Part shown: positions 29,922 to 32,381 of the stretch, in pieces
Position numbering within the stretch: position 1 is the first letter of the stretch
How the letters are laid out: every line of letters starts with the position of its first letter
Assembly: GCA_024408565.1 (NCBI GenBank)
Contig: JAKSUW010000005.1
Span: 1 to 54,131, forward strand
Direction of reading: 5' to 3'
DNA: 54,131 nucleotides
From: Bacilli bacterium
Lineage (GTDB): Bacteria > Bacillota_I > Bacilli_A > RFN20 > CAG-826
Notes under the pieces: generated by a model
Database searches by the model: none
What the model was told of the DNA's origin: nothing
The model's input: the letters and a program-made list of their open reading frames with translations, nothing else
Program-made: the position numbers and the translations under genes

Positions 29922-30575
29922 TTACTTAACCTCTACGGCTTGACCCGCTAAAGCAAGTACTGCGTCAGCCGGCTGCATTCCATCAATTGAGGTGACATAA
30001 CCCTTAGCTTCATAGAAACTAAGTAAGGGTTTCGTGTCACTATAATAGTGCGCTAAACGCGTCTTGAGCGAAGCTTCGTTATCATCTGGACGTTGCATGA
30101 GTGGTCCACCACAATGGTCGCAAATGCCTTCCACTTTGGGTGGGACATTAACGACGTGATAGGGCGTTCCACAATTCTTGCACACCCGCCGGCCGGAGAT
30201 GCGTTTCACCAAAATCGCTTCATCCGCCGTAAGATTAATAACTAAGTTCACCGGACGGTTTAACTTAGCGGTCAACTTCTCCAAAGCTTCCGCTTGCGCT
30301 AAGGTGCGTGGGAAGCCATCAAGAAGATAACCATGACTACAATCGTCTTGGGCAAGTCGAGCTTCAACGATACCAATGGTAACGTTGTCGGGGACAAGGT
30401 CCCCTCTTGCCATGTAGTCTTTGGCGAGTTGACCGAGTTCGGTTCCCGCCTTTATCGCTTCGCGAAACATGTCACCCGTTGAAATGTGCGGGATGTGATA
30501 CTTCGCGACCAGACGCTTTGCTAAGGTGCCTTTACCTGCACCGGGAGGTCCCATAAGGATAATATTACTTTTCAT
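29922..30575 (-). CDS. adk: Adenylate kinase (Zn-LID type)
   Basis: GPPGAGKGT, HISTGD, LDGFPRT, CKNC...CDHC. Confidence 0.97.
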   Translation of the reverse strand: MKSNIILMGPPGAGKGTLAKRLVAKYHIPHISTGDMFREAIKAGTELGQLAKDYMARGDLVPDNVTIGIVEARLAQDDCSHGYLLDGFPRTLAQAEALEKLTAKLNRPVNLVINLTADEAILVKRISGRRVCKNCGTPYHVVNVPPKVEGICDHCGGPLMQRPDDNEASLKTRLAHYYSDTKPLLSFYEAKGYVTSIDGMQPADAVLALAGQAVEVK

Positions 30576-30578
30576 AAA

Positions 30579-30986
30579 CTATAAACTTGCTCCTGCTGCT
30601 TGGACTTCTTCAAACGACTTGCCCGCTAAAAGGCCATCGATTTGCGCATTTAATTCAATCGCGACACCAACCACAATGATAAGGCTTGTACCACCTAAAG
30701 CCAAGGACTTATCATCGCCAAAGGCGTGCGCTAAGGTTAACACTACTGGTAAACCCGCAATGAAGGCTAAGGATATTGCGCCTAAGCAAGTAACGCGGTT
30801 TAAGACCTTACCAACATAACGTTCAGTTTCGTTACCGGGACGAATACCTGGAATATAAGAACCTGACTTTTGGAAGTTCTCCGCTAATTGTTGTGGGCTA
30901 ATTTGAATGCTCGCATAGAAGAAGCAGAATAAGATAGTTAAGGTGAGATAGATGAGAAGTCCCCACGGGAATTCAATATTACCCAT
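30579..30986 (-). CDS. secY: SecY C-terminal part (TM8-TM10)
   Basis: FCFFYA, YIPGIRPG.ET..Y, GGTSLIIVVGVA; preceded by GGGGAGG-6 nt-ATG. Confidence 0.88.
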   Translation of the reverse strand: MGNIEFPWGLLIYLTLTILFCFFYASIQISPQQLAENFQKSGSYIPGIRPGNETERYVGKVLNRVTCLGAISLAFIAGLPVVLTLAHAFGDDKSLALGGTSLIIVVGVAIELNAQIDGLLAGKSFEEVQAAGASL

Positions 30987-31001
30987 TGGTGGCCTCCCCC
31001 G

Positions 31002-31934
31002 CTACGAGAAGATTTTTCGCCACGGGTCGTTCGCGGCATAAACGCTAATAAAGCTTGCGATCACGCTTGGTGCAAGCATAATGCTACTAGCAAAGATGAC
31101 CGGAATAACACCAGCGGAGTTAATCTTGATTGGTAAGAAACTCGCCCGCGCCATGGTTGGATTTGCGCCACCACGACCCGCGTGTTGAACCGGGATCTTT
31201 CGTTTACTTAATTCAATAAAGACGACGAAAGAAATAATGAGAACAAACACTAAGATATAAAGGATAAACTGGAAGCTACCCTTTAAGATTTCACTCGCTG
31301 GACGACCAATGCCTGGTAACACCCATTTTTCAAACGCGGTTTTAATTTGGATTGGTAGACTCCGGATACAACCCGCAAAGATAATAACCGAAATACCATT
31401 GCCTAAACCTTTACTAGTGATCTGGTCACCTAACCACATCATGAGCATTGAACCAGCGAGAATAACAATAATAATGTAAATATAAGACCAAGGCGCTGGG
31501 ATTTGACCGTCTAAGGTAATTAATGATTGGTTTTCCATGGTCTTGATAATGCCATAAGCTTGGACTGAACCAAGTAGAAGCGTTAAATAACGAGTCGCCA
31601 TTTCGCTTTTCTTCCGGCCATATTCACCTTGCTTACTTAATTCAGTTAAAGCGGGTAAAACATCTTTACTTAATAATTGGACAATAATTTGAGCGGTAAT
31701 ATATGGACTAACACCAAGTGCGAAGATGGAGAAGTTTTGTAACGCACCTCCACCAATTAAGTCCATTAAGCCAACCGCTCCAGCGTTTTTTAACGCCTCG
31801 GCTAAATCAGGACTTGGTGTAACACCAGGAACAGTAATCGTCGCCCCAATCCGAATGACTAAAAGAATCATGATTGTAAATAAAATCCGACTCATGACTT
31901 CTTTGTTCTTTAGGATGTTAGCGATTTTCTTCAT
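31002..31934 (-). CDS. secY: SecY N-terminal part (TM1-TM7), ending at an in-frame TAG
   Basis: SIFALGVSPYITAQII, G.GNG.S..IFAG, INSAGVIPVIFA; same reading frame as the C-terminal part. Confidence 0.88.
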   Translation of the reverse strand: MKKIANILKNKEVMSRILFTIMILLVIRIGATITVPGVTPSPDLAEALKNAGAVGLMDLIGGGALQNFSIFALGVSPYITAQIIVQLLSKDVLPALTELSKQGEYGRKKSEMATRYLTLLLGSVQAYGIIKTMENQSLITLDGQIPAPWSYIYIIIVILAGSMLMMWLGDQITSKGLGNGISVIIFAGCIRSLPIQIKTAFEKWVLPGIGRPASEILKGSFQFILYILVFVLIISFVVFIELSKRKIPVQHAGRGGANPTMARASFLPIKINSAGVIPVIFASSIMLAPSVIASFISVYAANDPWRKIFS

Positions 31935-31940
31935 TAAATG

Positions 31941-32381
31941 TTATTTAATTTCCTTAATACTACCACCGGCTTTCTCAATCTTTGCTTTCGCGGATTTTGA
32001 AAACTTGTGGGCTTCAATATTGAGTTTCTTTTCTAAGGTTCCTTGACCTAAGATTTTCACTCCGGAACACTCACATTTTATAACACCATCACTTTTTAAT
32101 AAAGTGGGATTCACATTTGTTCCATCTTTATAACGGTTTAATTGTTCGAGATTAACGCAGGCATATTCCTTGCGGTTCATGTTGCTAAAACCGAACTTTG
32201 GTAACCGACGGTATAAGGGGTTTTGACCACCTTCGAAACCAACTTTCATATGGCCCGAACGGCTCCGTTGGCCTTTATGACCTTTGCCGCACGTCTTCCC
32301 ATTACCACTACCAACGCCCCGGCCTTTCCGGTACGCCTTCGTGACACTACCTGGAGTGTATTTTAATTCGTTTAGACCCAT
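31941..32381 (-). CDS. rplO: 50S ribosomal protein L15
   Basis: [26 protein letters not shown]. Confidence 0.97.

Follow-up and report, generated by a model that had tools for sequence, protein, structure and literature searches.

The secY gene in the window (the 54,131-nucleotide stretch of contig JAKSUW010000005.1 analysed here) is divided into two open frames by an in-frame TAG, and the explanation that we favour, to which we give roughly even credence, is that the break is a local multi-base artefact and not a property of the organism. According to this explanation, a local multi-base error, or a join of poorly supported sequence, would have arisen in a low-coverage metagenome-assembled genome over approximately 31005..30987, perhaps extending up to 31020. 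A normal Tyr codon and the loop that follows it would have been turned into a TAG and a G-rich stretch which, placed six bases before a conserved Met codon, would then imitate a ribosome-binding site. The true gene would encode an ordinary one-chain SecY with ten transmembrane (TM) segments.

Anatomy of the break in secY

The broken gene lies on the minus strand (31934..30579), with the in-frame TAG as codon 311 (31004..31002). The N-terminal open frame (31002..31934, 310 codons and TAG) encodes hydrophobic segments up to residue 292, which are TM1-TM7 by homology. The stop is separated by a 15-nt linker, CGGGGGAGGCCACCA (31001..30987, RGRPP if translated), from an ATG (30986..30984) that is a possible restart codon, and the linker contains the Shine-Dalgarno-like sequence GGGGGAGG (31000..30993), located 6 nt (CCACCA) 5' of this ATG. 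The C-terminal open frame (30986..30579, 135 codons and TAG) encodes three hydrophobic segments, TM8-TM10 by homology. The minus strand at the break reads ATC TTC TCG TAG CGG GGG AGG CCA CCA ATG GGT, and the ORF listing places both pieces (310 aa and 135 aa) in one frame. The in-frame TAG, the 15-nt gap, the shared frame and the GGGGAGG placed 6 nt before the ATG had been described in an earlier note on this DNA, and all are confirmed from the sequence. As assembled, secY is not one continuous polypeptide; a single Pfam SecY match (PF00344, 328.5 bits for a cut-off of 32.2) spans the TAG and covers profile positions 1-305 of 306.

In the hydropathy profile, the break falls between the hydrophobic segments at residues 274-292 and 325-343, and is followed by three segments in all. 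We take the flanking segments to be TM7 and TM8 by homology, and the break thus sits, by homology, in the extracytoplasmic loop between them; hydropathy and homology agree in this with the location given previously. In the Kyte-Doolittle profile (window 19), nine separate segments exceed the threshold of 1.5, and the expected TM3 (around residues 112-130) is below it. The neighbouring ORFs at 31941..32381 and 29922..30575 are presumably L15 and adenylate kinase, as read by eye, which would place secY between rplO and adk, as in the ribosomal-protein (spc) operon. The G+C content of the break region is 0.60-0.64 over 45 nt, which is not diagnostic since another part of secY reaches 0.69, and folding of the RNA around the break gave no significant structure (z = -0.93). 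At 31018-31016, five codons 5' of the TAG, an Arg codon (CGA) is found where Leu is conserved in at least 95% of the relatives, one more radical change in the cluster that surrounds the break.

A gap of 15 nt between stop and restart codons, with the Shine-Dalgarno-like GGGGGAGG located 6 nt before the ATG, is the anatomy of a coupled two-cistron gene, and it raises the possibility, which we hold tentatively, of a real gene fission in which secY would be expressed as two polypeptides (TM1-7 and TM8-10) from one mRNA. Translation would terminate at the TAG through release factor 1 (RF1) and re-initiate 15 nt further on at an ancestral Met, helped by a Shine-Dalgarno sequence that would have evolved in the untranslated linker. 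A stop-start gap of this length is compatible with termination-reinitiation in translational coupling. The TM8-10 piece would then insert with a short acidic N-terminal tail outside and join the N-terminal piece to give a working channel; the tail of the C-terminal piece would be short and acidic and the next loop is basic, which would fit the native topology.

secY in related genomes

Out of 41 related genomes (the genome containing the window, G000, being counted), 39 have a secY match, and an internal stop is found only in G000, the stops flagged in G018, G026, G032 and G039 being terminal. The gene is intact at the break site in all 19 of the relatives' loci, and 79 of the 80 metagenome loci, which are 66-79% identical to the C-terminal piece, are open at secY. 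A wider sample, taken across the order, comprised 401 genomes, of which 391 have a secY match; among the best 150 of the 393 matches, an internal stop is again present only in G000. The split shared with relatives for which the earlier note had suggested an alignment was therefore not found, secY being intact in all the relatives examined. The absence of a break at this site from all the other secY genes examined is one of the reasons for favouring an artefact, and it counts against a natural two-piece SecY.

The one metagenome locus that is not open (L045, a metagenome contig of a related uncultured bacterium, locus 1038-2402) has a TAA (CAA>TAA) at codon 348 of secY, inside TM8, with no start codon or Shine-Dalgarno sequence behind it, and is an example of an error-like stop. 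Two other broken secY genes were considered as parallels and rejected, as neither resembles the case of G000. In a relative assembled in 220 contigs (G010:C211:3268-4564, L105), secY lies in two frames, with a frameshift or deletion and the TM6 region missing, and this break is probably a misassembly; the secY of G003 contains a run of 65 N.

The closest relatives encode a single-chain SecY (P0002, 450 aa, 87% identical; congener loci L003-L006, 83-84%) which is the same gene, of the same length and in the same position upstream of the gene read as adk, and the Pfam match covers both G000 pieces. They differ in having Tyr (TAT) followed by an acidic loop of the S-E-M-T-P type, where G000 has TAG followed by CGGGGGAGGCC. 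Where G000 has the TAG, 142 of the 148 full-length relatives have Tyr, and all four congener loci have TAT and then read AGT/TCT GAA/GAG ATG/TTC ACA/ACC/ACT, compared with CGG GGG AGG CCA in G000. The earlier note had pictured, as a case against the split, that all close relatives would have an intact gene with the same RGRPP loop: the genes are intact, but their loop is acidic and of the S-E-M-T-P type. At the possible restart codon, Met is present in 145 of the 148 relatives, so that, judged from the alignment, the restart ATG is an ancestral conserved Met and not a new one, which corrects the earlier note on this point.

Neither half is decayed, as had been claimed. Among columns conserved in at least 95% of the relatives, 5 of 168 are changed in the N-terminal piece, a number also seen in other single relatives, where it varies from 1 to 10, and 0 of 63 in the C-terminal piece. 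The latter would be expected of a functional TM8-10 polypeptide, although undecayed pieces are equally expected if the stop is an error. The codons flanking the patch (conserved W, K, I, F, S, P and M) are intact, and frame and length are kept, all of which speaks against an artefact.

These data also bear on a third explanation, which we consider unlikely: a real nonsense allele of recent origin, which would be fixed in the population sampled, or frequent there, with no evolved two-piece design. A low level of readthrough, or re-initiation by chance, would keep the cells alive, or else the sequence would represent a dead-end variant or a decaying copy. The change from the congener codon, TAT>TAG, is a single step, and the undecayed halves would fit a very recent event. 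Such an allele leaves the derived G-rich linker and the charge of the loop unexplained, as these need either time after the stop or an artefact, and the broken gene is the sole secY copy found in a genome that is 90.8% complete.

The linker between the two open frames

Of the 4550 internal in-frame ATGs in G000, 2 have GGAGG at a distance of 4-10 nt on their 5' side. Among 623 first start codons, 128 are preceded by GGAGG or AGGAG, and GGGGAGG occurs 10 times when both strands are counted. The Shine-Dalgarno-like signal is beyond chance. The congener loci carry AGTGAAATGACA where G000 has the motif, which indicates that the motif is derived in G000. A near-perfect Shine-Dalgarno sequence at ideal spacing, with such a low chance frequency, favours the two-piece explanation and is an argument against an artefact.

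The coding properties of the linker are equally unusual. The net charge of the loop is between -5 and 0 in all 148 full-length relatives, and would be +3 in G000 if read through. At the five linker positions, K and R are absent from 137 of the relatives; 9 have one such residue and 2 have two. The read-through loop of G000 has nothing of the S-E-M-T/Y consensus, and it would use AGG, which represents 1.4% of the Arg codons in this genome, as well as GGG (9.2% of the Gly codons). With its odd charge, missing consensus and rare AGG, the linker looks non-coding, as it would be between two cistrons. The earlier note had argued that a single-base sequencing error does not account for the well-placed ribosome-binding site, and this is borne out by the chance frequency of the motif, the charge outlier and the rare AGG: one wrong base is not enough to account for the site. 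The linker is either non-coding DNA that evolved under selection for ribosome binding, or the result of several bases being wrong together.

The linker patch is unique in G000, no second copy having been found in the genome, and there is thus no template for gene conversion or for a repeat-mediated misjoin. A G-rich dense patch in contig C1 that shares GTAGCGGGG was examined and set aside as natural variation in a repeat surface protein.

Host genome and decoding of TAG

The genome G000 is a metagenome assembly of 929,526 bases in 26 contigs, with 90.8% completeness and a G+C content of 38.6%. A Pfam search of this genome yielded one SecY match only, the broken gene, and a second secY copy was rejected as an explanation because none is found in the 90.8% of the genome that is present. 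For a two-piece SecY, it is relevant that this only SecY is accompanied by both RF1 and YidC.

The possibility that the TAG is decoded as an amino acid, by a suppressor tRNA, pyrrolysine-type recoding or programmed bypass, so that a full-length chain results, appears very improbable to us. The frame is kept across the stop, and the genome is incomplete, with not all tRNAs found (tRNA-Tyr, for example, is missing from the 40 tRNA genes found). However, no tRNA with a CUA anticodon is present among these 40 genes, and prfA, coding for RF1, is found with 461 bits, above the cut-off. The stops of the 730 open frames of at least 150 codons are TAA in 540 cases, TAG in 102 and TGA in 88, and neighbours in the same frame split by a single stop are in proportion to this usage (58 for TAA, 8 for TAG and 3 for TGA). 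Of the remaining TAG-separated pairs, the six checked against Pfam either represent separate genes or have no family match. Genome-wide recoding and pyrrolysine were accordingly rejected, RF1 being present, tRNA-CUA not found among the tRNA genes and TAG serving as an ordinary stop, in agreement with the earlier note, and translational bypass was rejected since the sequence shows no take-off and landing codons that match and the RNA has no significant structure. As a separate observation in this genome, contig C20 (67647-72146, L113) encodes a 1500-aa protein with at least 8 Listeria-Bacteroides repeat domains (PF09479, E 8.6e-107), and a 554-aa ORF with no family match lies directly 5' of it in the same frame.

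Other lesions in the genome

A sister genome, G004 (913 kb, 10 contigs), has 92.4% nucleotide identity to G000 over 765 kb and was used for comparing ORFs in both directions. Stops within approximately the first 50 or last 25 residues (start- and stop-calling noise) were left out of the count of breaks, as was one Arg-rich 206-aa ORF which is probably spurious. Among the G004 ORFs of at least 120 aa, 614 have a match of at least 75% identity in G000, and three of these (lon, era and a UPF0029 protein) are broken mid-gene in G000 and intact in G004, and in the reverse direction none of 577 G000 ORFs is broken mid-gene in G004.

The gene for the lon protease (G000 contig C23:20759-23071, plus strand) has a TAA at codon 299, where the residues PWYQ of G004 are replaced by NK*K. 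The patch, at about 21650 of the contig, comprises four consecutive codons with six substitutions, all to A, and lies beside an A-run. Over the remaining 767 codons of this 771-codon gene there are 3 non-synonymous and 112 synonymous differences from G004, the protein outside the patch being 99% identical, and the 35 codons behind the stop have 1 non-synonymous and 6 synonymous differences. The stop is found in G000 alone among 15 genomes. In the gene for the era GTPase (G000 contig C4:26604-27488, L116, minus strand), codon 164, at about 26997 of the contig, is TGA where G004 has TTA (Leu). This stop falls between the GTPase and KH domains and no restart codon follows it; 4 non-synonymous and 28 synonymous differences lie behind it, compared with 6 and 30 before it, so that purifying selection is undiminished and the stop is either an error or very recent. 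The third lesion is a 1-nt deletion (TTATTTT>TT-TTTT) in the gene for a UPF0029 (IMPACT/YigZ-like) protein (G000 contig C21:54913-55485), which is intact in G004; the deletion shifts the frame in the conserved RYFGG motif.

From the sequences compared, the three lesions, which lie in genes that are normally indispensable, look like assembly or sequencing errors and are best read as such, in the case of era and lon because purifying selection continues to act on the sequence behind the stop. The stops of these two genes could also be invoked in favour of a recent allele in secY, but it seems implausible that a genome of approximately 1 Mb would really have lost era, lon and secY at the same time. 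Returning to the artefact, the three error-like lesions in G000, against none in 577 ORFs in the other direction, are another reason for favouring it, and error-like stops in other essential genes of the same assembly, one of them multi-base, weigh against a natural two-piece SecY. The lon lesion in particular shows that a multi-base, base-biased, stop-creating patch can arise in this assembly. The lesions themselves are seen directly in the comparison with G004; that the secY patch would be of the same kind is something we infer from them. With three more lesions in conserved genes of G000, and G004 free of any in 577 ORFs, a multi-base local artefact is a live alternative, and one that the earlier note had left unconsidered.

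The resemblance is partial. The lon and era genes of G000, as well as the secY of L045, are likewise essential genes of metagenome assemblies that are well conserved apart from one in-frame stop, but none of these stops has a Shine-Dalgarno sequence and a start codon just behind it, unlike the stop in the secY of G000. The secY patch is not all to one letter, in contrast to that of lon, and no pre-existing homopolymer is known there. One-base-biased substitution clusters number 38 in G004 and 30 in G000, 175 isolated patches have the same bias distribution in both genomes, and the contig ends of G000 differ about as much as the average (8.0% and 7.6% differences, respectively). With dense patches symmetric between the two genomes and ordinary contig ends, G000 is not generally full of artefact patches, which is a further argument against an artefact in secY. 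A patch of seven substitutions, all to A, was also observed 5' of an A-run at 42 nt from the start of a contig (G000 contig C10:1-70), where it alters the N-terminus of a membrane protein compared to G004; it may be a second artefact of the lon kind, at 42 nt from the contig end.

Search for independent copies of the split

A protein search gave no match of at least 90% identity to the read-through query or to the N-terminal piece, and nothing more than 90% identical to the C-terminal piece, for which the best match is P0153, a partial sequence at a contig end. Both pieces are absent, by exact look-up, from the 15-billion collection, and the DNA pattern of the linker has 0 matches in metagenome_contigs. 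The search for related loci returned 80 loci, all at most 79% identical to the C-terminal piece. The region of the secY break is not present in the sister genome G004, and the nearest sequence readable at the break site has 87% amino acid identity. The protein, DNA and related-locus searches gave no independent second example of the split, which is a further reason for favouring an artefact and a point against a natural two-piece gene.

Five sequencing runs from two studies were matched, with no RNA run among them. In run X2, whose strain is 94% identical to the window, a 1135-nt contig over 30513-31647 bridges the break with 68 differences and no gaps; the positions 30987-31004 are outside the differences listed (40 of 103 rows). 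Run X1, the best match (0.80 of words), has no contig over 30882-31109, and run X3, with a strain identity of 96-98%, has none over 30973-31104; neither of these gaps carries evidential weight. Among the 40 of 103 rows listed, all 10 of the X2 and X3 differences in the C-terminal piece are at third codon positions. This would be in agreement with a functional C-terminal polypeptide, but the same pattern is also expected if the stop is an error.

Many SecY C-terminal "proteins" of 127-142 aa are found in the databases (P0154-P0272), starting at the conserved loop Met or at the Met of MPWGL. They are likely gene-caller truncations at contig ends, since they are mostly on short contigs; P0156, on a contig of 66 kb, and P0246, on one of 23 kb, could be candidates for genuine splits.

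Comparison with known systems

That a gut Bacilli lineage with a genome of approximately 1 Mb runs its only Sec translocon as separate TM1-7 and TM8-10 polypeptides is a somewhat doubtful proposition, but one with consequences. A genuine split would make this SecY the first natural one in two pieces as far as the literature searched shows, and the universal protein channel would then tolerate being broken next to its lateral gate. The gene would also provide a ready system in which to study both channel assembly from fragments and the survival of an essential gene after a nonsense mutation by way of re-initiation. If the break is instead an artefact, a G-rich multi-base error before a conserved Met can imitate an evolved ribosome-binding site, and in-frame stops in essential genes of low-coverage metagenome genomes, including those in era and lon, need a read check first.

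No natural two-piece SecY turned up in the literature search, which counts against one here. The closest engineered case is yeast Sec61p, for which complementary fragments are described in PMC2185549 as complementing for most cut sites, loops 6 or 7 being the exceptions; the work is that of Wilkinson et al. (1997, EMBO J 16:4549), as cited in PMC2185549 and PMC8675477. Separately made N- and C-terminal fragments can reportedly rebuild a working SecY/Sec61 channel, which favours the two-piece explanation. The yeast fragments are engineered, eukaryotic and encoded by separate genes, and the loop 7 that reportedly fails is that between TM7 and TM8, the very loop that is cut in G000. A real fission would hence lie exactly where the engineered cuts reportedly failed. 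The failure of the cut in loops 6 or 7 to complement, as summarised in PMC2185549, is both an objection to a natural split and one of our reasons for preferring an artefact. Overall, the anatomy of a naturally two-piece SecY proposed in the earlier note stands, while the conclusion itself is not established in view of the ancestral Met, the lack of a second sighting, the three further lesions in the assembly and the reported failure at loop 7 in yeast.

Deletion of the same loop is more favourable to a two-piece channel. The yeast sec61 delta-L7 mutant is viable, with strong defects in post-translational import and ERAD, according to Tretter et al. (2013, PMC3897919). The loop between TM7 and TM8 can therefore be grossly altered without cell death, although the change is a deletion within one chain and not a break. 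Finally, SecY is made of two pseudo-symmetric halves, TM1-5 and TM6-10, as presented by Lewis and Hegde (2021, PMC8675477), and the idea shared with a two-piece SecY is that of a channel formed from separate membrane pieces. The evolutionary seam set out there is 5+5, whereas the cut in G000 is 7+3 and runs through the C-terminal half, beside the lateral-gate helix TM7.
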